A stretch of 64,000 nt of DNA. Origin: Candidatus Babeliales bacterium. Its GTDB lineage: Bacteria > Babelota > Babeliae > Babelales > JANWKD01. Both the position numbers and the translations under genes were made by a program. The notes under the pieces were generated by a model that was not told where the DNA came from, searched no databases, and saw only the letters and a program-made list of their open reading frames with translations. Below, piece after piece: positions 993 through 49,335 of the stretch. Location: positions 64,001 to 128,000 of the forward strand of contig CAVXJH010000007.1 in assembly GCA_963762115.1 (NCBI GenBank). The letters are read 5' to 3'. Every line of letters starts with the position of its first letter. The first letter of the stretch is position 1.

Positions 993-1494
993 GGCTTCCC
1001 TTTATAATTTGCTCAATAGTTTTTCCTCTGAATCTTGCAATATCTTGAATTGTTCGCAATTTAGCCAAAGCATTTAATGTTGCTTTAACAACATTCAATT
1101 GATTTGAAGAACCAAGAGATTTTGCTAAAACATCTTTGACGCCCAAAACTTCCATAACAGAGCGAACAGGTCCACCAGCAATAACGCCTGTACCTTGATA
1201 TGCAGAACGAATAATCACTGTGCTTGAACCATGCTTACCAACAACATTATAAGGAATCGTTGTATTACGTAATGGTACAGTAATCAAGCTTTTGCGTGCT
1301 TTAACGGTTGCTTTTGCAATTGCCGATGACACTTCTTTACTTTTTCCTAATGCTAAACCAATGTTGCCCTTTTGATCACCAGAAATGACAAAAGCAGAAA
1401 AAGAAAATCTTTTACCACCTTTGGTAACTTTAGTAACCCTTCTAACACTGACAACTGCATCTAAAAAATCTTTTTCTTTATGACCTTCAGCCAT
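976..1494 (-). CDS. rpsE: 30S ribosomal protein S5
   Basis: RVTKVTKGGKRFSF, GTGVIAGG, AKSLGS. Confidence 0.97.
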   Translation of the reverse strand: MAEGHKEKDFLDAVVSVRRVTKVTKGGKRFSFSAFVISGDQKGNIGLALGKSKEVSSAIAKATVKARKSLITVPLRNTTIPYNVVGKHGSSTVIIRSAYQGTGVIAGGPVRSVMEVLGVKDVLAKSLGSSNQLNVVKATLNALAKLRTIQDIARFRGKTIEQIIKGSHVAAK

Positions 1495-1517
1495 TATTTC
1501 AATTCCTACCTTATAGA

Positions 1518-1871
1518 TTAGACTTGCAAACCACCATCTCTTAATCCATCAGCTAGGCATTTAACCCTACCATGGAAAAGATAACTTCCTCGATCAAAAA
1601 CAACAGCTTTAATACCTTTGTCTAAAGCTCTTTTTGCAAGCTCTAACCCTACAGCTTTTGCTTGTTCTTTTTTATCACCAGAAAGTGTTTTTAATTCAAC
1701 TGTTGAGCAACTTACAACAGTATTATGATTAGTATCGTCAATAATCTGTGCATAAATATTATTTATACTACGAAAAACAGATATTCTTGGTAACAGTTGC
1801 GTATTTAAACGGCTACGTACTCGACGTTTTCTTCGCACTGTTCTTTGTTTAATTTTTCTTTCTAAAGACAC
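1518..1871 (-). CDS. rplR: 50S ribosomal protein L18
   Basis: [31 protein letters not shown]. Confidence 0.97.
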
Positions 1872-1886
1872 GGCTATTTCCCATTA

Positions 1887-2426
1887 TTAAGATGATTTAG
1901 TTTTGCCAGCTTTACGGATTAACACTTCATGTTCTAATTTAATGCCAGTACCCTTGTAAGGCTCTGGTGGTCTTAATCCACGAATATGGCTACAAACTTG
2001 ACCTACCATCATTTTATCTGAACCTTTTACAATCAAAATCTGTCCAGTTTTATCAATATCAACAGTAATTCCAGCAGGTAATTCAAAGTCTATTTTATGA
2101 CTATACCCTAATGAAAAAACAAGTTTGTTGCCCGTTAATACCGCTTTAAAACCTAATCCAGTAATTATTAGTTTTTGTTCAAAACCAATATTAGCACCGA
2201 TGATTTTATTAGCTAACAAAGCTCGATTTAAACCCCAAATTCTATTGCCATCAGACGAACGAAGATCGGTTGTTAAAACAATCGTGTCGTCAGCTAGTTC
2301 AGCTTTTATCTCAGATGGTAAAACATGAACACCAGATGATTTTTTACCCTTAAAGTGCACTTCTTGCCCCTTAATATCAATCTGGACATCTTTTGAATTT
2401 ATTGGTCTTCTTCCAATTTTTGACAT
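1887..2426 (-). CDS. rplF: 50S ribosomal protein L6
   Basis: Start reassigned to MSKIGRRP; LGYSH, RPPEPYKGTGI. Confidence 0.97.
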   Translation of the reverse strand: MSKIGRRPINSKDVQIDIKGQEVHFKGKKSSGVHVLPSEIKAELADDTIVLTTDLRSSDGNRIWGLNRALLANKIIGANIGFEQKLIITGLGFKAVLTGNKLVFSLGYSHKIDFELPAGITVDIDKTGQILIVKGSDKMMVGQVCSHIRGLRPPEPYKGTGIKLEHEVLIRKAGKTKSS

Positions 2427-2436
2427 AATTTTATCC

Positions 2437-2832
2437 TTACCAGATCGAACAAATAACTTCACCGCCAACAGATAATTCTCTGGCTTTTTTATTCGTCATG
2501 ATGCCTTTATTAGTTGTCACAATTGAAATTCCCAACTTCCCAATCACAAATTTCATTTGTGATGCTTGCTCATAAACACGTCTTCCAGGCGTACTTTTAC
2601 GAACAATTTCGTGAATTACCGATTCACCATCAACATATTTTAAAAAGACTTTAACCAATTTTTTACTTGGTTCTTCTTCTAAAATTTCAAAATCTTTAAT
2701 GAAGCCTTCTTCTTTCAAAATTTTGACAATTTCCAATTTAAGTTTTGAATACGGAGCAACAACATTGCGCTTAGAAGCCATCAGTCCATTTCTGATGATT
2801 GTTAAAAAATCTCCGATAGCATCAATTGACAT
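2437..2832 (-). CDS. rpsH: 30S ribosomal protein S8
   Basis: DAIGDFLTIIRNG, STPGRRVY, VGGEVIC. Confidence 0.97.
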   Translation of the reverse strand: MSIDAIGDFLTIIRNGLMASKRNVVAPYSKLKLEIVKILKEEGFIKDFEILEEEPSKKLVKVFLKYVDGESVIHEIVRKSTPGRRVYEQASQMKFVIGKLGISIVTTNKGIMTNKKARELSVGGEVICSIW

Positions 2833-2850
2833 AATAGTCCTTTATCTCAT

Positions 2851-3036
2851 TTACCAGCTAGTTTTCTTAACACCAGGAAGCAACCCTCTTAGAGCGAGTT
2901 TTCTAAAACAAAGACGACACATCATAAATAAACGAATATATCCTCTTGGACGACCGCATAATTTGCATCTATTTCTTTGTCTTACTAAAAATTTAGGCGT
3001 TTTATTGGCCTTTTCAATTAACGCTTTTCTTGCCAT
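2851..3036 (-). CDS. rpsN: 30S ribosomal protein S14 (short Zn-binding type)
   Basis: 61 aa, [10 protein letters not shown]...MCRLCFR. Confidence 0.97.
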
Positions 3037-3044
3037 TGCTTCCC

Positions 3045-3602
3045 TTAAACATTTTTAATTTTTTTAAACGGCATATTAAATCCTTTAAGCAGCTCCAGCG
3101 CATGTTCATCTTTACGCGCAGTAGTATGTATAGAAACATTAAGTCCGTATACGGTTTCACCTACACCCCTGTCTGCTTCAGGAAAAATTGACCATTCTTT
3201 TAACCCTATATTATAATTTCCATTACCATCTAACTTTAGCGGCAAACCCTGAAAGTCTCTAACATTAGGTAAGGCAAGATTGATAAGCTTATCAAGAAAA
3301 TTATACATATTTTCTTTTCTAAGCGTTACCATCACACCAAGAGGCATACCTTCACGAATTTTAAATCCAGCAATTGATTTTTTTGCCAACGTTCTCACTG
3401 GTGCTTGACCTGCAATACGTCCAATTGTATCAACTACAGTTTTTAAAATCTTACTATCATTTACAGCTTCTTTTACGCCCACATTAAGAACAATTTTAGA
3501 AATTGAAGGAACTTGCATAATATTATCAATTCCCAATTTTGTTTTTAATTCTGAACGTATTTTTTTATCATATAATTCTTTTAAGCGAGACTTCGGCATC
3601 AA
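3045..3602 (-). CDS. rplE: 50S ribosomal protein L5
   Basis: [30 protein letters not shown]. Confidence 0.97.
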
Positions 3603-28106: not shown

Positions 28107-29420
28107 TTAACCTATTACTTTAGGATTTATTCCCAACCAACGATCCAAAATAATTGCCACTGCCGAACGAACAGATAAATGATTAAAATCTGAAAATCCT
28201 TCAATAGGTGCCAGCAAATAATCACATCGCTCTAATACCTGAGGCGCAATACCATGACCAGTACCAAAAAGTAATAAAACTGGTCGATCGTCTTCCCAAA
28301 CCTTATTTTGATCACTATACGTGATTATTTTCTTCCCAAAATGGTCATCATGATAACGAGCAGATGTTGCAATCACCAATGGTTTTTTACCCTCTTTTTT
28401 CTCAATTGCTTCAAGCGCCTGTTCCAAATGGTCAACTACTTCAACATTTTTGATCGCCTGATGACGATGTTGATTATATTCAACACCTTCACCAACTTTC
28501 CAAAAATCAAGCAATTTCTCAACAATTCTTTGTTGATCCAATAAAGGCGTCACAATAAAATATTGCTTAAGCCCAAAAGTACACGCAGAACGAGCAATAT
28601 CGTGAATATCAAGAGAGGTGACTGAAGTGGTGCCAACCTGCTGTTGAGGCAACATAACTTGATCATGCATCAGCGCTATATAATGATGAGGAATATAGGT
28701 TCTGGCAATCTTTTTTTGCTGTTGCGTCAACAATGAAGAAACGAGCCATGAAAAATGTTTTTTTACCGTTTTTTCTGCGGCCTTTTCTTCTTGCCATTTC
28801 TGAATAGCACCATGATTGCCAGAGCGTATTACTTCTGGCACTTCAAGATCATGCCACACAACGGGTGTTGTAAACTCTGGATAATCAACAAAAGGACCCG
28901 AAAAAGATTCTTTCTCAACTGATTCTTGCCTACCCACAACCCCCGGCAACAATCTAACAAAACCTTCCAATAACATCATAGCAGGTAAATCACCTGCCAA
29001 AAGAACAAAATCACCAACAGAAACAACCAAATCAGCATATACCTGCTCAACACGGTCATCCATGCCCTCATAGCGAGACGCAATGAGCATCAAATGATTT
29101 GTTTTCTGTGCATTTTGAACTATTTGTTTTAGAAGTGGTTGATTGAGCTTTTTACCCTGAGGCGAAAAAAAGATCTTGTATGCTTTACCATATCGAGCTT
29201 CTTTATCATCGAGCGCCTTTTCAATGACTTCAGGCCTAATGAGCATTCCTGCCCCATGACCAAACGTAGGGGCATCAATACGCTCTTTAGGCTGCACATA
29301 TGAAAAAAAGCCATCCACATCATAGTGAACTAACTTTTTTTCAGACGCTCTTTGCATCAAGCTTGTTTTCAGAAAAGTGTCATATAATTCGGGGAAAACA
29401 GTAATAAGAGAAACGTTCAT
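28107..29420 (-). CDS. trmD: tRNA m1G37 methyltransferase TrmD fused to a second SPOUT methyltransferase (Tm1570-like)
   Basis: N-half: ITVFPE, SPQG, RYEGMDDRV, VGDFVL, RLLPGV, ESF, VPEVIRSGNH. C-half: VTSLDIHDIARS..TFG, LLLFGTGHG, FNHLSVRSAVAIILDR. Confidence 0.9.
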   Translation of the reverse strand: MNVSLITVFPELYDTFLKTSLMQRASEKKLVHYDVDGFFSYVQPKERIDAPTFGHGAGMLIRPEVIEKALDDKEARYGKAYKIFFSPQGKKLNQPLLKQIVQNAQKTNHLMLIASRYEGMDDRVEQVYADLVVSVGDFVLLAGDLPAMMLLEGFVRLLPGVVGRQESVEKESFSGPFVDYPEFTTPVVWHDLEVPEVIRSGNHGAIQKWQEEKAAEKTVKKHFSWLVSSLLTQQQKKIARTYIPHHYIALMHDQVMLPQQQVGTTSVTSLDIHDIARSACTFGLKQYFIVTPLLDQQRIVEKLLDFWKVGEGVEYNQHRHQAIKNVEVVDHLEQALEAIEKKEGKKPLVIATSARYHDDHFGKKIITYSDQNKVWEDDRPVLLLFGTGHGIAPQVLERCDYLLAPIEGFSDFNHLSVRSAVAIILDRWLGINPKVIG

Positions 29421-33024: not shown

Positions 33025-33930
33025 ATGAAGAAGTTTCTCTATCTTAGCTTAACCGGCTTAATGGTTTTAAGCACAACAACACGTTGCATGGAACAAATTA
33101 TTAAAGCCGATGAAGAAGCACAAAAAGATGGAAGTGTGCAAACAATAATCTTAGAATCAGAAAATGCATTAAAAGTACAGGGACCACAATTACCAGCAAA
33201 AAAAGAAGTGATTCAAGCGTTCTTGGAAGCCTATGTTGTTGTCTCAACGATGGGCCGTTATGGCGTTGCATCATCAGAACCATTTGCAATAATGAAGGAA
33301 TCATACGCCACCGTTAAGGCCATTAACAAAGGTGATAAAGAAAAAACACGATTAGAATTATTTGATGGCTATTGCAGTGCTGATGAAGAATATTATGAAA
33401 AAGGACTTGACGACGAAGAAAAAACCGCTCAAAAAATTAAAGCTATTGACTCACTCGTAGCATTAAGATATCAATCAAAACTTAATGACAATCAAAAAAA
33501 ACATGCCGCATTAATGCAAAGAAAAGAAGAACTAACTAAAACTATTAAAGAATTACTCAATAAAAAAACCGCTATTCAAGAAAAATTGCGTGAAAAAGAA
33601 GAAGAAAAATCGCTTCTTGAAAAGGTTAACGCCATGCATCATAACTCTAAAGAACAAGAAAACTCCTTACTTCGTTCGCGCAAAGAAACATTAACTGAAG
33701 AAATAAAAGCTATTGATGAACGCATTGCAAAACACAAAGAAGAATCTAATGCTTTACTTGAAGGTGATGTAATGCAAAGCGTGGTTGCAGATGCTATAAA
33801 AGACCATTCCGATGTTGAAGCTGGTCTTTTAGAAAAAAAAGCAGAATTACAAGCAAAATTCGATAAAATTAATGCTGTTATTGAAAAGCTAGAAATACCA
33901 AAGACTGGTTGGTTTGGTAATTGGCTATAA
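33025..33930 (+). CDS. Secreted coiled-coil protein
   Basis: AAGGAG RBS; signal ...TTRC|ME; long heptad-rich C-half; ends TGWFGNWL. Confidence 0.8.
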   Translation: MKKFLYLSLTGLMVLSTTTRCMEQIIKADEEAQKDGSVQTIILESENALKVQGPQLPAKKEVIQAFLEAYVVVSTMGRYGVASSEPFAIMKESYATVKAINKGDKEKTRLELFDGYCSADEEYYEKGLDDEEKTAQKIKAIDSLVALRYQSKLNDNQKKHAALMQRKEELTKTIKELLNKKTAIQEKLREKEEEKSLLEKVNAMHHNSKEQENSLLRSRKETLTEEIKAIDERIAKHKEESNALLEGDVMQSVVADAIKDHSDVEAGLLEKKAELQAKFDKINAVIEKLEIPKTGWFGNWL

Positions 33931-34095: not shown

Positions 34096-35445
34096 ATGAA
34101 GATTTTATATTCCACCCTTGCATTATTATTATATATAAACGCGCCATTATACTGCATGGAAGAAGAACAAAGGCAACTCGGCTTTCCATCTTCTAGTAAT
34201 AATAATGATGCGGATATTTCTGAGTTCTTCTTAGCTGATGCTGCAGAACAAAGCGGCGTCCCTTTAAAACGAACGCATACTAAAGGCCCTTCAACAATTT
34301 TTATGGAACGTGTTGACACACACAATCATGAAGAAGCAAGCGACATAACAACAGGCTTTTTTGCAATGCCAACAAAAGAGGCGGGAAGCGATGAATACGC
34401 ACAAGAAGACGTAGATAATGATCCAACTGAAAAAAAATCTACAATATTGATAACAAAAATATTTGAAGAACATGTAATTCCACAATCCAACGAAAATAAC
34501 AATAATCAAGGACCACAAATGACTCCCTTGATTCCACAATTATTTGATAAAATCGAAGATCATAAACAAAAAAGCAATTTTTCTTGGACAAAGATACTTG
34601 AAATATTTAAAGCTGATGATGAACGACAAAAAGAATTACTCGGTGATAATAATTTATCAGAAGTTATTTCCAGGTCACAGAACGAAACTTTAAAAGTATA
34701 TTATTCTAGCCTTGCACATCTTGGAGAATTGACAGAACTTTTCTGGATCTTAAAAAGCAAATTATCAAAAATGCCTATTGAGGAAAAGAAACTGTCGGTT
34801 GAATTTGAGCATAAAAACTACATATATGCGGGCATAATTAAAAGATGCAGTAACAATAAAGAAGAAGCAAAAGCACTCTTATTAGGAGTCGCTGATTATG
34901 AAAGTGACGAAGAAAAAATTATTGATGGCGATCTAGAAAATGATGAACCTGGTGTATATCGTTTATCAAAAAACATTTTGACCTATGCATTACCAGCTTT
35001 GACAAAACGAATAAATGAAAATCAAGCATCTGTTGATAGTTCTATACAAGAAAAAGAGCTCATAGATAATAAAATAGCTGTATTAGAAAAGCAAAAACAA
35101 GAAGTTTTAGCAAAATTAAATCAAGAACTCACCAATAAACGACAATTAAAACAAGCAGAATTGATCATTAAACAAGAAAGAGAAACCCAAAGAGAATATT
35201 TATTAAGAAAACAAGCAACATTAAAAAAAGCTATAGTTTTTCTAGAAGATAAAATTAATGATTTATCACATCAAAGCGAAGAAGCAGTACTACAACAAGC
35301 AAATGACAAAAAAATATTATTAAACAAACAAAAAAAAGCAACCGAAGAACAACTGAGCAAAACAAAATTAATATTAGCTGATCTTGAAAAAAATTTAAAA
35401 AATTTTGATACTCCAACTGGCTACAAGCTTTGGAGAGGAAAATAA
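34096..35445 (+). CDS. Secreted coiled-coil protein with disordered acidic N-region
   Basis: AAGGAG RBS; signal ...PLYC|ME; coiled-coil C-half; ends TGYKLWRGK. Confidence 0.8.
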   Translation: MKILYSTLALLLYINAPLYCMEEEQRQLGFPSSSNNNDADISEFFLADAAEQSGVPLKRTHTKGPSTIFMERVDTHNHEEASDITTGFFAMPTKEAGSDEYAQEDVDNDPTEKKSTILITKIFEEHVIPQSNENNNNQGPQMTPLIPQLFDKIEDHKQKSNFSWTKILEIFKADDERQKELLGDNNLSEVISRSQNETLKVYYSSLAHLGELTELFWILKSKLSKMPIEEKKLSVEFEHKNYIYAGIIKRCSNNKEEAKALLLGVADYESDEEKIIDGDLENDEPGVYRLSKNILTYALPALTKRINENQASVDSSIQEKELIDNKIAVLEKQKQEVLAKLNQELTNKRQLKQAELIIKQERETQREYLLRKQATLKKAIVFLEDKINDLSHQSEEAVLQQANDKKILLNKQKKATEEQLSKTKLILADLEKNLKNFDTPTGYKLWRGK

Positions 35446-38623: not shown

Positions 38624-39430
38624 ATGAAAAAACTCTTAAAATTTATTTTTATATCACTCTTAATGATGCATGCACCTTTATGGGGAATGGAAGCCCAATC
38701 TAAAAAAACTAATGAATTAATGCAAGAATGTTATTGTGGTAGTATAGTTGCACAACATAGATTACGCTATCACATTGATGGGTACCACGCTATTGTTATA
38801 AAGGGGAAAAAAGAATATCTATGCCCTAAAGAAGGTTGTCAATTTAAACCCTTTTCTAAAACAACTCACGTCATTCATCATTTGATGGTAGAACACAAAT
38901 TTTTTGATTTTACAAAACCTGGAAATCATGAACCTGAATCAAAACAAGAGGCACAAGCTAAAACAGATGAATCAGTCTTCAGCAGCGCTGATTTATGGAG
39001 TGCTGAAAACAATAACGAAGCAACCAACATTAAAAAATATTGCCAATGCGGAAAAAGATGGCCTCAAGATAAAAGAGAGGCACAACTTCAGCACATTAGA
39101 ACACATCATTGTGAGATGACTAATTTTGTAAAAACATTTATCTGTCCAAACTGCTCTTTTCCAGGTAAAACGGCAGAAGTTGTATTAGAACATAATAAAA
39201 TCCATACTACCAATAAAAATCAAACTCCTCCCCCTTCTAAAAAAATCAAAAAAAAAGAATCAAAAAAATCTCAAAGGTTAATAACCATTTTGCCAAATGC
39301 ACTCCAGCAAACTTCAGTCCCTTTTGAAAATGTTACAAACCTACCAAATGACAATGATCAGAAACTCTTAGAGATTTTTTTAACCTATAATTCAGGAGAG
39401 CTTGAAGAATTATTTCCAATGATAAACTGA
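38624..39430 (+). CDS. Secreted protein with four C2H2-like zinc fingers and an NLS-like basic patch
   Basis: Signal ...PLWG|ME; CPKEGC..HLMVEH, CPNC-x12-HNKIH, two CxC...H..H units; PPPSKKIKKK. Confidence 0.75.
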   Translation: MKKLLKFIFISLLMMHAPLWGMEAQSKKTNELMQECYCGSIVAQHRLRYHIDGYHAIVIKGKKEYLCPKEGCQFKPFSKTTHVIHHLMVEHKFFDFTKPGNHEPESKQEAQAKTDESVFSSADLWSAENNNEATNIKKYCQCGKRWPQDKREAQLQHIRTHHCEMTNFVKTFICPNCSFPGKTAEVVLEHNKIHTTNKNQTPPPSKKIKKKESKKSQRLITILPNALQQTSVPFENVTNLPNDNDQKLLEIFLTYNSGELEELFPMIN

Positions 39431-41435: not shown

Positions 41436-41816
41436 TTAATCATTTTTCATCACTTTAATTATTACTGGTGATGGAGAATAGTGTAACAGCTTAATTCGTT
41501 CAGGCAAAAATAATGTATCACGAGAAACAGAAATAGGATAATTACCTTGTACAAAGTTTTTACAATCAAGATGAACCGCAAGTTCATGCAAAGACATCAA
41601 CAGCAAATCACTTTTATAACCAAATAGAGCAACTGAAATTGATTCGGGCGCATCTATCTTAATAGCTTCATTGCCATAAAAACAAAGTGGCACACGCAAG
41701 GTAATCGTTTGCAATTGATGATAGCTCATACTATGCCATAACCAATACCCTAAAATAAGCGCATTTATTTTAAGACTGTGTTTGTTCAAAAGAAGATTTC
41801 TGAGCGAAAGATTCAT
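41436..41816 (-). CDS. CdaR/YbbR-like protein (one TM, one YbbR-like domain)
   Basis: N...KINALILGYWLW anchor, VPL, P.SISV.L.G, LP...SPSPV; sits between the cdaA-like gene and glmM. Confidence 0.65.
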   Translation of the reverse strand: MNLSLRNLLLNKHSLKINALILGYWLWHSMSYHQLQTITLRVPLCFYGNEAIKIDAPESISVALFGYKSDLLLMSLHELAVHLDCKNFVQGNYPISVSRDTLFLPERIKLLHYSPSPVIIKVMKND

Positions 41817-42645
41817 TAAAAACTCCCTTTAATGGTGATGAACCATTTTTCTTATGTTCTTTGGGGTATTGAGTAATACTTTTTAAGAGCGCAACTACTG
41901 TCGCAGCAGGCAGGTGCTGCATCATTTTTCCTTGCATAATCAACGTGAATAATCTTTCTTCGGGTTGTATTTGTAGTATAAGAGCATCGGTTTTATGCGT
42001 GATTGCTAAAGAATATTTTTGCCACGACTCAAGCAACTCATCTTCCAAAATCATAGTATTCAGTTCACATCGCCATGATGCATTAATACTTTTTAGATGA
42101 CCAGAACTTTCAATCACTATCATTTTTGATGCATCAAAACGAGGACTATCAATAAAAACTTCTAATAATTCTATTTCCAGTGAAGCATTAACCAAAAAAG
42201 GCACTGCCAAATATGGTTGAATCATATCATACTGCTCAATAACAACCAATAACTGTTTATTGGTGTTAACAGCATGCAAACATCCCCGCATTAAAACTTC
42301 AATCCAATCATTTTTAACCGACTCAATCTTTGTATGCACTCTACTCAATGTTATAAAATTTTTCTGCAAGATCTGTTGATGAAAAAATATAAAAAGCATG
42401 AAGATAAAAGGAGCAGCATACATAAGTAAAAAATTAACAGAAAAAAAACCTAATAATTGTGATGCGCACATTGCTAAGCAATAACCATAAAACGGCAACA
42501 CAAGATTTTTTTGTTTATCACTAGCCAACCATACTGAAAAATAATAAATCACTACAGAATAACAAATAATTTCAATACCATCATACCACCGCAATAACCA
42601 AAAAAATGGTAACAATTTCGATACGTAGTATAAGAAATCCATCAC
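41770..42645 (-). CDS. CdaA-like membrane protein with a degenerate diadenylate-cyclase domain
   Basis: Three N-terminal TMs, IFFHQQI (cf. IFQPEL), LLVVIE, VNASL..ELL..FI..SP, AITHKTDAL; DGA and RHR motifs absent. Confidence 0.65.
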   Translation of the reverse strand: MMDFLYYVSKLLPFFWLLRWYDGIEIICYSVVIYYFSVWLASDKQKNLVLPFYGYCLAMCASQLLGFFSVNFLLMYAAPFIFMLFIFFHQQILQKNFITLSRVHTKIESVKNDWIEVLMRGCLHAVNTNKQLLVVIEQYDMIQPYLAVPFLVNASLEIELLEVFIDSPRFDASKMIVIESSGHLKSINASWRCELNTMILEDELLESWQKYSLAITHKTDALILQIQPEERLFTLIMQGKMMQHLPAATVVALLKSITQYPKEHKKNGSSPLKGVFNESFAQKSSFEQTQS

Positions 42646-44180: not shown

Positions 44181-44771
44181 ATGACACAGCAAAAAAAAAC
44201 ATCTTCATATACCATTGGCATTGGATTGTTTTTATTTATACTTTTAATTATTACTTGCATTGCTTACTGGCAACAAGTTCGTTTATTTCCCGAGCAAATG
44301 ATGTCAAATGATATCAATCAACTCGCTATGATTTTTAATAAAATTAATGATACCTGTGGCATTCTTGATTTTCAATCTGACCATACTGAAGTTGATTTTT
44401 TAAATGTCATCGCCTTTAAAGGTTCAGAAGTCGGCGCAATGAACTTAAAATTTTCTTCAAAATGGGAAGGCCCCTACGTAAGAGATAATCCTACCATTCA
44501 AGAAAAACACTACCAAATTGTTAAAACTAAAAAGGGCTACTTTATTATTCCTGGCAATGGCGTTGCCTTAAAAAATGGCCTAGTTATAGGAAAAGATATC
44601 ATTATTGATAAAAATACCGATATTACCGAGCTTATACGAAATAAATCATTAGTTGATTCGGCCGGTAAGCCTTTAGCCCTGCCCATACCTACCCTTAATC
44701 TGCCCTCATCCATCCTTCTAGAAGACCTCTTTATGTATGCCTCCCATAAATTACCCTTTTTAAGGGCTTAA
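44181..44771 (+). CDS. Membrane-anchored protein, possibly pseudopilin (GspG)-like
   Basis: Basic N-terminus + hydrophobic helix, DINQL...CG helix, WEGPY motif. Confidence 0.45.
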   Translation: MTQQKKTSSYTIGIGLFLFILLIITCIAYWQQVRLFPEQMMSNDINQLAMIFNKINDTCGILDFQSDHTEVDFLNVIAFKGSEVGAMNLKFSSKWEGPYVRDNPTIQEKHYQIVKTKKGYFIIPGNGVALKNGLVIGKDIIIDKNTDITELIRNKSLVDSAGKPLALPIPTLNLPSSILLEDLFMYASHKLPFLRA

Positions 44772-44965
44772 TAGAGACGTTACAGGTTAAAAGGCCTGTT
44801 TAAACCTATAAAAAACGACCTTTTTAGAGGGTCAATACCTATCAATTTTTAACCTAAAATTAATTTTCTTATTGCAATTATTTTTTATCGATATATACTT
44901 ATTTTATATAAACATAATTCTATTATTGATTTTTTTTATAGCTAAAAAAACAGGAGTTTTAAGCG

Positions 44966-46717
44966 ATGTTAAACAAAAAACTACTTTTATCAATTATTTT
45001 TTCATGCCTCACTTATTCAGGCATGCAGGCTATGGAGGCTTTGTCATTGGAAGAACCTAAAGAAAATGAAGCACACGTTCTTAACGATAATGATATAGTC
45101 ACTATTCAATTAACCTACAATTTTAAACAAGAAAAAGAATATGATAAAACAATGTATCAACCTAAAGATAATGACGATTATAACATCAATTACGAGGTAA
45201 CAGTACCATATAAAATTATTAAAACATGTTCGTTATTACGACGTGATATCTCTCATGAAAATACCATTATCACCATTCCTGCCACCGATATTTCTATAGA
45301 AATGTTTAAATTTATTTTAGATTTGCTCAATATATATTCCGATGATCAATTAACAAATGAGATCAAAATACAAAAAATACACGAATTAATAAAAAACAAT
45401 GAAGAAAAACTTTTTCAATTACTTGATGCAGCTAATTATTTGAATTGTGAACCAATCTATAATGCAGCGAGTCATATTATGACACAAAAACTTGAAAGCT
45501 TAATTTTTGAAAAAAATAATTTGGCAGAAGCTCTTGCATTAGCAAAATACATCAAAAAGAAAACCAATCATTATTACAAAATATTTGAATATTTATGTGA
45601 TACTTCAAAATATAAAACTGAAATCAAAGCAATTGTTAAATCAATACAAGCGTTGGAAGAAACTGAAATTATTAATTCAATATGCTTTTCTCCAGATAAT
45701 AAAACACTTGCTTATACACGTATCCCAAACGATACCGCCATAAAACTCTGGAACATTAGCAATGATGAACACTCATCAATGCCAAAAATAGATAATTTTA
45801 ACATCGGGTCAATCAATTTTTCTCATGATGGCACAAAAATCGCTTCAGGTTCTTGGAATGGCAACATAAAAATATGCGATGTAAATTCAGAAACCTGTTT
45901 AATCGATCTACAAGGACATACAACTTGGGTAACTTCAATATCTTTTTCTCATGATGATACTAAACTTGCATCTGCTTCTCATGATAACACCATAAAAGTA
46001 TGGGATGCTAAAACGGGTGAATGCATATCTACTTTCCAAGAAAATGATCGAGTTCTCTCAGCCTGTTTTTCACCTAATAGCAAAATTCTTGCTTCAGCTT
46101 CCAAAAATTTTATAAAATTATGGGAAGTTTCATCGGGGAAACAGCTACAAATCCTTAATGGTCATAACAATGAAATTAGGAACATTTGTTTTTCCCCAGA
46201 CGGCACAACAATTGCTTCATCTTCTCTAGATGCAACGGTAAAAATATGGGATACATCTTCTGGAAATCTTTTAAAAACTTTAGAGGGCCACAAAAGATCC
46301 ATACCTTCTGTTTGCTTTTCTCCTGATGGCACAATAATTGCTTCCGGTTCTTTCGATAGAACAATAAAAATATGGGATGCGTCTTCTGGAAAATACTTAC
46401 AAACGATCAAAGATACCGGCCAAGTTCGCGCCATGTGCTTTTCTTCTGATGGCAAACTTGCTAAAGGATGTAATGAAAAAAATATACAGATTTTTACTTT
46501 TCATGATCTCAAGAAAGAGTTCAATCTTTCTACTTTACTATTGCTTGAATATTTGATGTATCATAAGGAACATAATTCATTACCAGCATTATCACAACTT
46601 GATCCATCCATGCAAGGATTATTCTTGTTGTTACCAGAAGCATTCCAAAAAATGTTTACCGATATGCCTGCAACTAACGATGTTCCCACAACAAAGTCTA
46701 ACTGCTTAGTTAGTTAA
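44966..46717 (+). CDS. Secreted Skp1/BTB-POZ-like + 7x WD40 protein with a C-terminal CaaX box
   Basis: AGGAG RBS; signal ...GMQA|ME; LFQLLDAANYLN; seven WD40 repeats (e.g. GH..V.S..FS.D...LASAS.D.TIKVWD); ends CLVS. Confidence 0.85.
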   Translation: MLNKKLLLSIIFSCLTYSGMQAMEALSLEEPKENEAHVLNDNDIVTIQLTYNFKQEKEYDKTMYQPKDNDDYNINYEVTVPYKIIKTCSLLRRDISHENTIITIPATDISIEMFKFILDLLNIYSDDQLTNEIKIQKIHELIKNNEEKLFQLLDAANYLNCEPIYNAASHIMTQKLESLIFEKNNLAEALALAKYIKKKTNHYYKIFEYLCDTSKYKTEIKAIVKSIQALEETEIINSICFSPDNKTLAYTRIPNDTAIKLWNISNDEHSSMPKIDNFNIGSINFSHDGTKIASGSWNGNIKICDVNSETCLIDLQGHTTWVTSISFSHDDTKLASASHDNTIKVWDAKTGECISTFQENDRVLSACFSPNSKILASASKNFIKLWEVSSGKQLQILNGHNNEIRNICFSPDGTTIASSSLDATVKIWDTSSGNLLKTLEGHKRSIPSVCFSPDGTIIASGSFDRTIKIWDASSGKYLQTIKDTGQVRAMCFSSDGKLAKGCNEKNIQIFTFHDLKKEFNLSTLLLLEYLMYHKEHNSLPALSQLDPSMQGLFLLLPEAFQKMFTDMPATNDVPTTKSNCLVS

Positions 46718-46743: not shown

Positions 46744-46777
46744 AAAGAGCCGTGTTATATATAACACGGCTCTTTTT
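46744..46777. terminator. Bidirectional intrinsic terminator
   Basis: AAAGAGCCGTGTTATATATAACACGGCTCTTT palindrome. Confidence 0.85.
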
Positions 46778-46928: not shown

Positions 46929-47270
46929 TTAAAAATTTAGTTGTTCTTGTAACTTTAACCAATACTGTTCAAGTTTTTGATACATTACATGCTCTTTGTC
47001 TTTACGATTGCCAAACGATGTGCATTGAGTCGTTTCATTGTTAATAGGATAACTCATCCAACCAGAATACGATACAGATCCCTTTTCTTTATCTACACAT
47101 TTACTAACAACAAGTTCTGCTCTTTTTTCTTCATTTGTTTGAGTAAGAACTTCACGCACACATAATGTATCTTCATCAGTTTCTTTAGTTACCTTACCAC
47201 CACATTCCATGGCTGATGCCGAAAAAAATAAACCTAAACTAATACTCAACATTGCACTATATAGTTTCAT
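46929..47270 (-). CDS. Small secreted protein, paralog family member 1
   Basis: MKLYSAMLSISLGLFFSASA|MECGGKVTK..E.LTQ..YSG..KLE..W..L. Confidence 0.8.
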   Translation of the reverse strand: MKLYSAMLSISLGLFFSASAMECGGKVTKETDEDTLCVREVLTQTNEEKRAELVVSKCVDKEKGSVSYSGWMSYPINNETTQCTSFGNRKDKEHVMYQKLEQYWLKLQEQLNF

Positions 47271-47307
47271 AGTATTCCTTATGTTTGCATTACCATGATA
47301 AAATTTA

Positions 47308-47667
47308 TTATTCTACTTGAGAGTTTAAATCGTCCCAAAGACTCTCAAGCTTTTTATGATTTTCGTCTGTCATTTCATTAAAATCACCTAAACACTTTTG
47401 CTTCATGATTGGCTCACCTTCACTCTCATCTTTTTCAATTTTATCATAAACCTCTACGCCAGAATATGCTGCAAATTTCGTCTCTTGATTAATTCTCTTA
47501 GTCACACAAAGATATGTCCCATCTTCAGTATTTTCTTGCGTAAGAATTTCATATACGTATGATGTATCTTCATCAATTGATTTAGTTACTTTACCACCAC
47601 GATGCATAGCTGATGCCGAAAAAAATAAACCTAAACTAATACCCAACATTGCACTATATAGTTTCAT
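47308..47667 (-). CDS. Small secreted protein, paralog family member 2
   Basis: Near-identical signal peptide; GGKVTK, EILTQ, YSG, LGDF, KLESLW. Confidence 0.8.
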   Translation of the reverse strand: MKLYSAMLGISLGLFFSASAMHRGGKVTKSIDEDTSYVYEILTQENTEDGTYLCVTKRINQETKFAAYSGVEVYDKIEKDESEGEPIMKQKCLGDFNEMTDENHKKLESLWDDLNSQVE

Positions 47668-47680
47668 AGTATTTCCTTTG

Positions 47681-47797
47681 TTAAATTAGGACTTGAATGC
47701 ATGCGTTTAATTCTAATCAAAGAACTTCCAAATTTATAGCATGTTCACCTGGATCTTTTTTTTTAATCATTTCACCACCAAAACAACGTTTTATTTT
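47681..47797 (-). pseudogene. C-terminal remnant of a fourth paralog
   Basis: KIKRCFGGEMIKKKDPGEHAINLEVL*LELNACIQVLI* resembles the family C-terminus (C/W-L-G...LE.LW.ELN) with TGA at the Trp position. Confidence 0.6.
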
Positions 47798-47833
47798 AGC
47801 AGAATAAAAAAAAATAACTTTAATATGAACGCT

Positions 47834-47880
47834 AAAAAGAAAAGAGGCGTGCTCTTATAAAGCACGCCTCTTTTCTTTTT
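47834..47880. terminator. Intrinsic terminator
   Basis: AAAAAGAAAAGAGGCGTGCT-loop-AGCACGCCTCTTTTCTTTTT. Confidence 0.85.
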
Positions 47881-47906
47881 ATAATTTTTATTCTCAAACT
47901 TTTAAA

Positions 47907-48275
47907 TTAAGATTTTATTTGAGAATTTAATTCTGACCAAAGAGTTTCAAGTCTTTTATAACCATCACTTGTTTTATCATCAAAATCGCCTAACCATGTT
48001 TGATTAATTCCAGACAAAATATCATATGTTGAAGTTTTTTCATCATAAAACAAATCGCCAATTATACCGGAATATGATAATGCTTTTGTTTCTTTATTTT
48101 CTCGTTTACTAATAAAAAGATACTTTTGTTCTTGGTCATTTTTTTGAGTTAAAGTTTCACGTATAAATTTCTTTTCATCTTGTATCTTCTTAGTTACTTC
48201 ACCACCGCACGTCATGGCAGATGCCGAAAAAAATGAACCTAAACTAATACCCAAAATTGCAATATATAACTTCAT
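47907..48275 (-). CDS. Small secreted protein, paralog family member 3
   Basis: MKLYIAILGISLGSFFSASA|MTCGGEVTK, ETLTQ, YSG, LGDF, RLETLW. Confidence 0.8.
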   Translation of the reverse strand: MKLYIAILGISLGSFFSASAMTCGGEVTKKIQDEKKFIRETLTQKNDQEQKYLFISKRENKETKALSYSGIIGDLFYDEKTSTYDILSGINQTWLGDFDDKTSDGYKRLETLWSELNSQIKS

Positions 48276-48396: not shown

Positions 48397-49335
48397 TCAT
48401 TTAAAAAAATTGAGAAAGAAATGTTCAAAATAGGAAGAAATACCATTTTTGATATTCCAATCAATGGTAGTTATTTGATCATGTGCATTTTTAAGTTCAA
48501 TCAAATTCACACTTCGCCAATCTTTCTGCACAAAAGAAAAAGGAAGGCGAAACGCACTTTTTTTTGCTTGCGCAAAGTCTTTTTTTTGCATTAATTCAAC
48601 AAAACAATAAGCACGAAAAAGTTGTTCAGACCAGTAGGTCGTCCAAAAAACATCGCCATAATCATCTTTAATGGCATGCCAAAGTTTAAAAAATTCTCGA
48701 TCTTGTTTTGCAAAAAAATAGCTACTCAAAGTAAATAACGATTTTTCTGGCACCATAAGCGCATCAAATAACTCTGCAACGTCACCATCAATTTTAGAAC
48801 CTAACACAAGTGCATAGTTCATCAATAAACATGCATTCTCAAGTGAAAGAAATTTATATTTTCTAAAAAACGAAAGCACAACCTGGCTTTTAGCCTTAGT
48901 GGCATATTCAGGAAAAAATAATGAAAATAATTGTATATATAATTCAAGATCAATATCATTGGGAAGCTCTACAGCGTGAATTTTGGCAATTAATGGTTTG
49001 TCAGTAAAAAAATGTAATGTATGCGGCCCTTCATACTGCTCAAAATAACTTTGCAAGTTTAATTGTTGTTTAGCATCAAGACCAATAAAATCAGTAAGCC
49101 AGTAAAAATAATTTGTTCCCAAGAATGACATTTCTAAATGCGATTTATAAGAAAGATCGTGCACAATATTTTCACAATCTAATGATTGAATTATATATTC
49201 ATTTTTTTTGTACACTTGTTTTAAATGATAAAAAAATAGTGCGGGATATTTTTTACCTACAAAGCAAAAAACTGGCGGTAGTTTCCTACTTCCAGTTTTA
49301 TCAGGTAATATGCTAAGAAATGCAATAAAATCCAT
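48397..49335 (-). CDS. holA: Probable DNA polymerase III delta subunit (divergent)
   Basis: 312 aa; pattern VFCFVG..., SFLG...(cf. SLFG), ...FTL...F, terminal D..IKNG typical of delta; 3 bp downstream of rph. Confidence 0.55.
   Translation of the reverse strand: MDFIAFLSILPDKTGSRKLPPVFCFVGKKYPALFFYHLKQVYKKNEYIIQSLDCENIVHDLSYKSHLEMSFLGTNYFYWLTDFIGLDAKQQLNLQSYFEQYEGPHTLHFFTDKPLIAKIHAVELPNDIDLELYIQLFSLFFPEYATKAKSQVVLSFFRKYKFLSLENACLLMNYALVLGSKIDGDVAELFDALMVPEKSLFTLSSYFFAKQDREFFKLWHAIKDDYGDVFWTTYWSEQLFRAYCFVELMQKKDFAQAKKSAFRLPFSFVQKDWRSVNLIELKNAHDQITTIDWNIKNGISSYFEHFFLNFFK

Follow-up and report, generated by a model that had tools for sequence, protein, structure and literature searches.

The gene P0001, found in the window (the whole stretch of 64,000 nucleotides that we analysed), encodes a single chain in which a predicted Sec signal peptide, a Skp1-type domain, a helical linker, a WD40 propeller and a terminus of CaaX type follow one another. 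It belongs to a family of repeat proteins that is expanded in its genome and present across the phylum Babelota, and whose N-terminal domain has Skp1 ancestry and has lost the F-box-binding tail. This whole Skp1-repeat family matters more than P0001 alone, and its phylum-wide size went unseen in the preliminary description of the gene. We propose, with a confidence that falls a little short of an even chance, that P0001 is an exported one-chain substrate receptor that docks on host Cul1 and marks host proteins for ubiquitination, probably held by a host farnesyl anchor. The broader proposal is possible but somewhat doubtful: a Skp1 of eukaryotic origin would have been captured by the Babelota, trimmed of the tail that binds F-boxes and reused as a modular plug for Cul1 on dozens of WD40 and LRR proteins exported by Sec. 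They would be the first substrate receptors of Cul1 to work as one chain, with no dependence on host Skp1 or F-box proteins, and some of them would be brought to host membranes by CaaX ends added across the genome.

The gene, its surroundings and its domain layout

P0001 is carried by a genome of 1.53 Mb that is 95% complete, and the features of the gene are compiled in Table 1. The assignment of this genome to the Babelota agrees with its ribosomal protein L2, for which the top match among the 80 best of 600 comes from a Babeliales genome (69%, the others reaching 58% or less), with the family protein P0063, which its source labels as Babeliales, and with the listed phylum genomes, all of them assigned to the same order. 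No RNA sequencing run was listed, and the short pieces obtained from two DNA runs leave the CaaX end of the gene uncovered. Eukaryotic contamination was excluded as its source because P0001 is flanked by bacterial housekeeping genes, on a contig of 160 kb, and has homologs in 38 other genomes. The inverted repeat that follows the gene is likely a two-way terminator, and the promoter scan remained at chance level (9 vs 12.8).

Table 1. Features of P0001 and its immediate flanks, in window positions, with the basis of each assignment.
Feature	Positions	Strand	Basis
P0001 gene, 583 aa, intact ORF	44966..46717	+	G000:C7:108966-110717
Shine-Dalgarno-like AGGAG, 9 nt 5' of ATG	44952..44956	+	seen in sequence
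Predicted Sec signal peptide, residues 1-22, cleavage inferred at MQA/ME	44966..45031	+	hydropathy
Skp1-type POZ core plus helix H6, residues about 44-182	45095..45511	+	profile, model, alignment
ITIPA (102-106), degenerate counterpart of Skp1 PxPN	45269..45283	+	alignment
AANYLN (155-160), best-kept Skp1 motif	45428..45445	+	alignment
Three-helix linker (183-231), standing where Skp1 has its F-box-binding tail	45512..45658	+	model, profile
Seven-bladed WD40 propeller (235-512)	45668..46501	+	Pfam, model, Foldseek, motifs
C-terminal helical cap (513-565), common to the two closest homologs	46502..46660	+	model, alignment
Tail, likely flexible, low-confidence, with CaaX box C580-L-V-S at its end (46703-46714)	46661..46714	+	model, sequence
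Perfect 32-bp inverted repeat, A/T-rich flanks, between convergent genes	46744..46775		seen in sequence; absent from scan output

Directly downstream of P0001 and convergent with it lie three tandem paralogous ORFs (46929-48275 on the minus strand; 113-122 aa, 42-47% identical), which have no Pfam match; the two whose starts were inspected have signal-like N-termini. Likewise, the medium-sized ORFs at 33025-33930, 34096-35445, 38624-39430, 41770-42645, 44181-44771 and 48397-49335 show no significant Pfam family. Further upstream (28107-29420, minus strand), the window holds a TrmD, the tRNA m1G methyltransferase, fused to a SAM-dependent RNA methyltransferase domain (PF09936).

The preliminary description had read P0001 as a signal peptide ending at MQA/ME, a Skp1/POZ-like region at residues ~75-175, seven WD40 repeats and a C-terminus of CLVS followed by the stop. 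The signal peptide agrees with hydropathy, a check used here in place of SignalP: a basic start is followed by a hydrophobic core, whose highest Kyte-Doolittle mean over nine residues is 2.68, at residue 7, and beyond the signal no 19-residue segment exceeds 1.3. The seven repeats were confirmed by Pfam (PF00400, E 1.6e-59), by seven blade motifs at residues 241, 285, 327, 368, 409, 451 and 492, and by Foldseek, whose best matches are seven-bladed propellers (E 4e-28); this propeller would be the substrate-binding module. The C-terminus also reads as described, stop codon included (46703-46717), at the end of a tail with pLDDT<50. In the case of the Skp1/POZ region, the domain itself stands as a family-level match, whereas its start had been placed too late and lies near residue 44 in the model.

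A Skp1-derived domain without the F-box-binding tail

Taken alone, the N-domain of P0001 resembles Skp1 weakly. Against the PDB it matches yeast Skp1 with an E-value of 0.018, Pfam gives no match to it at E≤10, and its Atlas scores for Skp1 resemblance (0.79-0.82) are a lead only; a homolog search from P0001 alone returned 2 proteins, and a single-protein scan of genome contigs returned none. At the family level, however, the identification is clear. Profile A1, built from 26 domains (22 from the genome of P0001 and 4 from three other genomes), matches Skp1 in the PDB at 2e-18, compared with 3e-4 for ElonginC and 2e-3 for BTB, and the family profile aligns with 13 Skp1 sequences at an hhalign probability of 99.4%.

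The POZ fold that the preliminary description had predicted is present in the structural model of residues 40-232 (pLDDT 81), for which Skp1 was the top match in two structure searches. The best structural match is the Skp1 chain 1ldk_D (Z 9.8, rmsd 2.7 A over 112 residues), followed by two more Skp1 chains at Z 8.5; BTB/3-box chains reach a Z of about 7 (SPOP 7.5, KEAP1 7.2), with the helices after the core aligned. Foldseek also ranks Skp1 chains first, at E 0.12 or weaker, and Pfam BTB (PF00651) has no match in the N-domain or anywhere in the genome. The N-domain of the family is Skp1-type rather than BTB-type.

To describe what the domain keeps of Skp1, a profile of 172 positions made from 23 eukaryote-type Skp1 sequences was run over 122 bacterial-type proteins, of which 71 came from genome loci and 51 were picked by eye from the best 150 library matches, the two sets overlapping in part. 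In 110 of these proteins the profile found 133 matching domains. The homology mostly stops at positions 123-147 and passes position 147 in only 2 of the 133 domains; in P0001 it stops at 136. Within the matched part, the family keeps the Skp1 columns S35 (74%), T37 (69%) and D44 (68%), the residues I-P-L-P (82/59/76/59%) and A-A-N-Y-L-D (71/60/66/68/97/79%), as well as the S-x-T-I/L helix, while in PxPN each of the two prolines is found in 59% and the Asn in 35%. In Skp1, the two C-terminal helices form the F-box-binding surface and PxPN, in strand B3, contacts Cul1 (PMC1257465; this and the papers below are cited from their accessible parts). With the tail helices missing and the core columns kept, the family has therefore retained the cullin-facing core and dropped the F-box-binding part. 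Since helices alpha7/alpha8 are absent, the domain is best regarded as Skp1-derived and not as a Skp1 proper. The earlier suggestion that P0001 bypasses host Skp1 and F-box proteins gains support from a Skp1-type domain of this kind, but P0001 itself is divergent: PxPN has become ITIPA and the MLED stretch of the second helix is changed, with AANYLN kept. Its branch in the tree is long (2.16), and its identity to the other domains of the family does not exceed 28%.

In the phylogenetic trees, the eukaryotic Skp1 sequences and the bacterial domains form separate groups (98/92 after thinning to 8 and 49 rows; 97 in another tree), whereas in a first, larger quick tree one bacterial pair falls among the eukaryotic Skp1 rows. 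Because of this pair, and because all trees are unrooted, we claim neither a donor nor a single origin.

The linker that follows H6 is poorly conserved, with a mean column identity of 16% in the family. A strict LPxE-type motif occurs after H6 in 15 of 70 family segments, compared with 3 of 313 control windows, and is absent from the linker of P0001. Helices of the LPxE type recall those of the F-box and the SOCS box. Pfam F-box matched 1 of 30 and 1 of 17 linker segments, at a non-significant E of about 0.06, and PDB profile searches with the linker yielded no significant F-box or SOCS structure; no F-box motif was found in P0001.

Spread of the family and its CaaX termini

An iterated search of the 1351 called ORFs of the genome (E≤1e-3, six rounds) gathered 24 proteins that share the N-domain of P0001, a set that was still growing at the sixth round. 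When 25 paralogs were scanned with Pfam at E≤0.01, 15 had propeller-type repeats, 3 had LRRs and 4 had Skp1_POZ, mostly below the curated cut-offs. F-box proteins commonly use propellers and LRRs as their substrate modules. Across the phylum, profile A1 has matches in 39 of 151 genomes, Pfam Skp1_POZ exceeds its cut-off in 21 (and in none of 14 controls), Pfam BTB exceeds it in 3, and an F-box-like match exists in 32, the genome of P0001 having none; these 151 genomes are mutually related and the counts are not independent. In a library of 1.84 billion proteins, 4145 match the family profile at E≤0.001, and the best 150 of them are signal-bearing repeat proteins mixed with ordinary eukaryotic Skp1. 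By hydropathy, the start is signal-like in 66 of the 71 family ORFs taken from genome loci.

Several members depart from the common layout. Two or three Skp1-like domains are found in one chain in L019, L031, P0009 and P0138, and L008, of 191 aa, is propeller-less and has a CaaX-like end. The closest in-genome paralog of P0001 is split at L009 (C6:583492-585163) into a Skp1-like ORF of 164 aa and a WD40 ORF of 362 aa, and a near-identical N-terminal copy, L012 (C3:585999-586382), sits at one end of contig C3, which may be an assembly junction. The homolog from the same genus keeps AANYLD.

A different arrangement is seen in L030:1015-2163 and in two Babela WD40 proteins (PMC4378268 supplement), which have an LPxE-like helix before the propeller and no Skp1-like domain. 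L030 and one of the Babela proteins also have an L-x-E-L-C-I helix. Such a helix resembles the BC-box/SOCS box, and no BC-box/SOCS-like helix was detected in L030 by Pfam. These WD40 proteins may possibly represent a second cullin-recruiting family.

As for the C-termini, Cys is found at position -4 in 45 of the 1351 ORFs of the genome, in comparison with 15-31 at the other positions from -1 to -10. The pattern C-x-[VIL]-[SQMA], which was chosen after viewing the list of ORFs with Cys at -4, ends 17 of the 1351 ORFs, where 0.98 are expected from the internal background or about 2.6 from non-coding shadow frames. Lys and Arg before the box average 2.2 in these 17 ORFs and 1.1 in the others. A crude split by signal peptide gives no significant difference (10/623 vs 7/728, Fisher p 0.33). 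In samples of 400 kb from six other genomes, two show an excess of CaaX ends (4/364 and 3/320) and four do not (0/323, 1/358, 1/329 and 1/339).

The preliminary description had named a CaaX box that is not conserved in homologs and not prenylated among the points that would speak against its reading, and this is borne out in part. In both the homolog from the same genus and the split paralog in the genome, the alignment with P0001 ends at residues 567-571 and the CaaX tail is missing, and Cys stands at -4 in 7 of 107 distinct family C-termini (0-3 at other positions), a set from which 13 open-ended loci and 2 duplicates had been dropped and in which library proteins may be truncated. With the box absent from the closest homologs and so few members having the Cys, membrane anchoring would thus be an optional add-on and not a defining trait of the family, and the tail appears to be a late or recent addition. 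The box of P0001 is still probably real and selected, because CaaX ends are enriched genome-wide.

It could be argued that this box is idle, either a chance terminus or one that is never prenylated, which would leave a soluble protein; this is compatible with any other reading of P0001, and we regard it as unlikely. Besides the missing boxes in the closest homologs, 1 to 2.6 of the 17 genome matches are expected by chance, and a single basic residue is found among the seven that precede the box of P0001. Against these points, the genome-wide excess is at least six-fold, basic residues are enriched before the boxes as a whole, and other family members have independent CaaX-like ends. The excess of CaaX ends is direct genomic evidence that Sec-exported proteins of the Babelota probably come into contact with enzymes of the host cytosol, a point relevant to how effectors are delivered.

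CaaX-type ends are also seen elsewhere in the genome. Three ankyrin-repeat proteins of 800-920 aa, L320 (C3:515763-518288), L324 (C6:42247-44655) and L325 (C6:400668-403433), share the terminus ERCIIS. Termini of CIIS, CIIQ or CTLQ are found in many small hypothetical proteins, where basic residues often precede them, and one CaaX-ended protein has a NADAR domain. A family search of the genome for prenyltransferases gave no match; since it gave none anywhere else either, it counts as no evidence.

Possible action on host Cul1 and comparison with known systems

A Sec signal alone does not bring a protein to the host cytosol. The genome of P0001 encodes two secretins, and a type II secretion system has been reported for the Babelota (PMC4776705). 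Members of this phylum (Dependentiae, TM6) are strict intracellular parasites of protists (PMC12172432, PMC6561590), and Babela fills the cytoplasm of its amoeba (PMC4378268). In the mechanism that we propose, P0001 would be exported by Sec and would then pass by type II secretion, through one of the two secretins, into the host, where its Skp1 core would replace host Skp1 on the N-terminal repeat of Cul1. The linker would occupy the place of Skp1 H7/H8 and the F-box, leaving host Skp1 or an F-box protein unneeded, and the propeller would select the substrate, with paralogs swapping in other propellers or LRRs. Host farnesyltransferase would modify Cys580 and attach the protein to endomembranes, weakly because P0001 lacks both a polybasic and a second-Cys signal. 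A cullin family search detected one in a virus bin but none in the 151 phylum genomes, and any partner would therefore be that of the host.

The same binding to Cul1 could have the opposite outcome. As a decoy or inhibitor, the Skp1-like domain would displace Skp1/F-box receptors from host Cul1, or tether Cul1 at a membrane, and host proteins would be stabilised. Sequestration of this kind would suit the propeller-less L008 with its CaaX-like end and the tandem copies of L019 and P0009, and the geometry of the linker, on which ubiquitin transfer would depend, is not conserved. We nevertheless hold it to be improbable: most members have diverse propellers or LRRs, and a protein that acted purely as a decoy would have no use for two dozen variants of them.

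A further reading, to which we give a low probability, is that the family began as a Cul1 adaptor and that the domain of P0001 has lost its cullin binding and serves only to position a WD40 binding module anchored at the membrane. P0001, on its long branch, is without PxPN, the second-helix motif and the LPxE helix, and the split of its nearest in-genome paralog into two ORFs is a sign of rapid turnover; yet P0001 has kept AANYLN and the whole fold, and the same-genus homolog has kept AANYLD. Finally, that the surface shared by BTB folds binds Cul3, Cul2/5 or another Skp1 partner, in the manner of BTB-Kelch or ElonginC-SOCS modules, is very unlikely, for although the Z scores of SPOP and KEAP1 are not far below the 8.5-9.8 of Skp1 and one-chain adaptors have so far been a Cul3 trait (PMC3597819), sequence profiles favour Skp1 by at least 14 orders of magnitude and the genome is without a Pfam BTB match.

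The proposed docking of P0001 on Cul1 would be of interest since Cul1 normally works through Skp1 and an F-box protein, and one-chain cullin receptors are described as a feature of Cul3 and BTB proteins (PMC3597819). If it is true, natural fusions of Skp1 and receptor would demonstrate that a single chain suffices to drive Cul1, and they would provide compact Cul1-recruiting modules for study or as tools for targeted degradation.

In eukaryotic SCF ligases, Skp1 and WD40 F-box proteins such as Cdc4 and beta-TrCP are two chains joined through Skp1 H7/H8 and the F-box. P0001 has the same elements in the same spatial order, namely the Skp1 core with H6, a helical linker and a WD40 propeller, but in one chain that lacks H7/H8 and has no detectable F-box. 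The union of adaptor and receptor in one chain, with a BTB-fold core, helices and a propeller, is shared with BTB-Kelch and SPOP proteins, which include poxvirus A55 and the mimivirus BTB/POZ-WD protein R739, the latter being among the weak viral fold matches of P0001. BTB-Kelch adaptors are one-chain Cul3 receptors (PMC3597819), and this group is BTB-type and, where studied, binds Cul3 as dimers, whereas the domain of P0001 is Skp1-type by sequence.

Among bacteria, the PEX1 BTB-LRR family of Protochlamydia, with 73 lineage-specific members whose function is inferred, offers a parallel (Domman et al. 2014, PMC4209131): it too belongs to an amoeba-associated bacterium, is greatly expanded and joins an N-terminal cullin-adaptor fold to repeats. 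PEX1 combines Pfam BTB and LRR with type III signals, whereas the Babelota family, from another phylum, is Skp1-type, has mostly WD40 repeats and Sec signals and is sometimes CaaX-tailed, a distinction drawn from the description of PEX1 only (PMC4209131). Legionella AnkB, an F-box protein that binds host Skp1, has ankyrin repeats, is exported by Dot/Icm and ends in a CaaX box that the host prenylates (PMC2916131), likewise unites a ubiquitin-ligase recruiting module, repeats and a C-terminal CaaX; it differs from P0001, which has Skp1 built in and a Sec-type export signal and in whose family CaaX is sporadic.

Within the Babelota, an action on the host ubiquitin system has been proposed for signal-peptide-bearing WD40, LRR, ankyrin and F-box proteins, and the accessible parts of these papers mention neither Skp1/POZ nor CaaX (PMC4378268, PMC4776705, PMC6561590), unlike what we find in the family of P0001. 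The searched Babela supplements contain no Skp1, BTB or POZ, and in the accessible text of that paper 'Skp1' appears only in the title of a reference (PMC4378268); the word is absent from the main text of PMC4776705 and PMC12172432. Among the matches listed by our literature searches, which covered journals outside subscription, no paper describes a bacterial family derived from Skp1 and none pairs 'Dependentiae' with 'CaaX'. As judged from its sequences, the family of P0001 belongs to none of Skp1 proper, Pfam BTB and the F-box effectors. The Babelota are widespread and barely studied, and the family gives many of their hypothetical secreted proteins a testable role.

A separate set of ubiquitin-related genes was encountered in the giant-virus bin G164. 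It encodes a full-length Skp1 and a Cul1-like cullin, whose best PDB match is Cullin-1 at E 1e-4 (L160:409-912, L169:855-1391 and 1429-3399). Searches from this divergent Cul1-like protein led to close viral relatives only. Beside it lies an ORF with a Cys/His pattern that, by eye, is RING-H2-like, and taken together these genes would make up a near-complete viral SCF kit.
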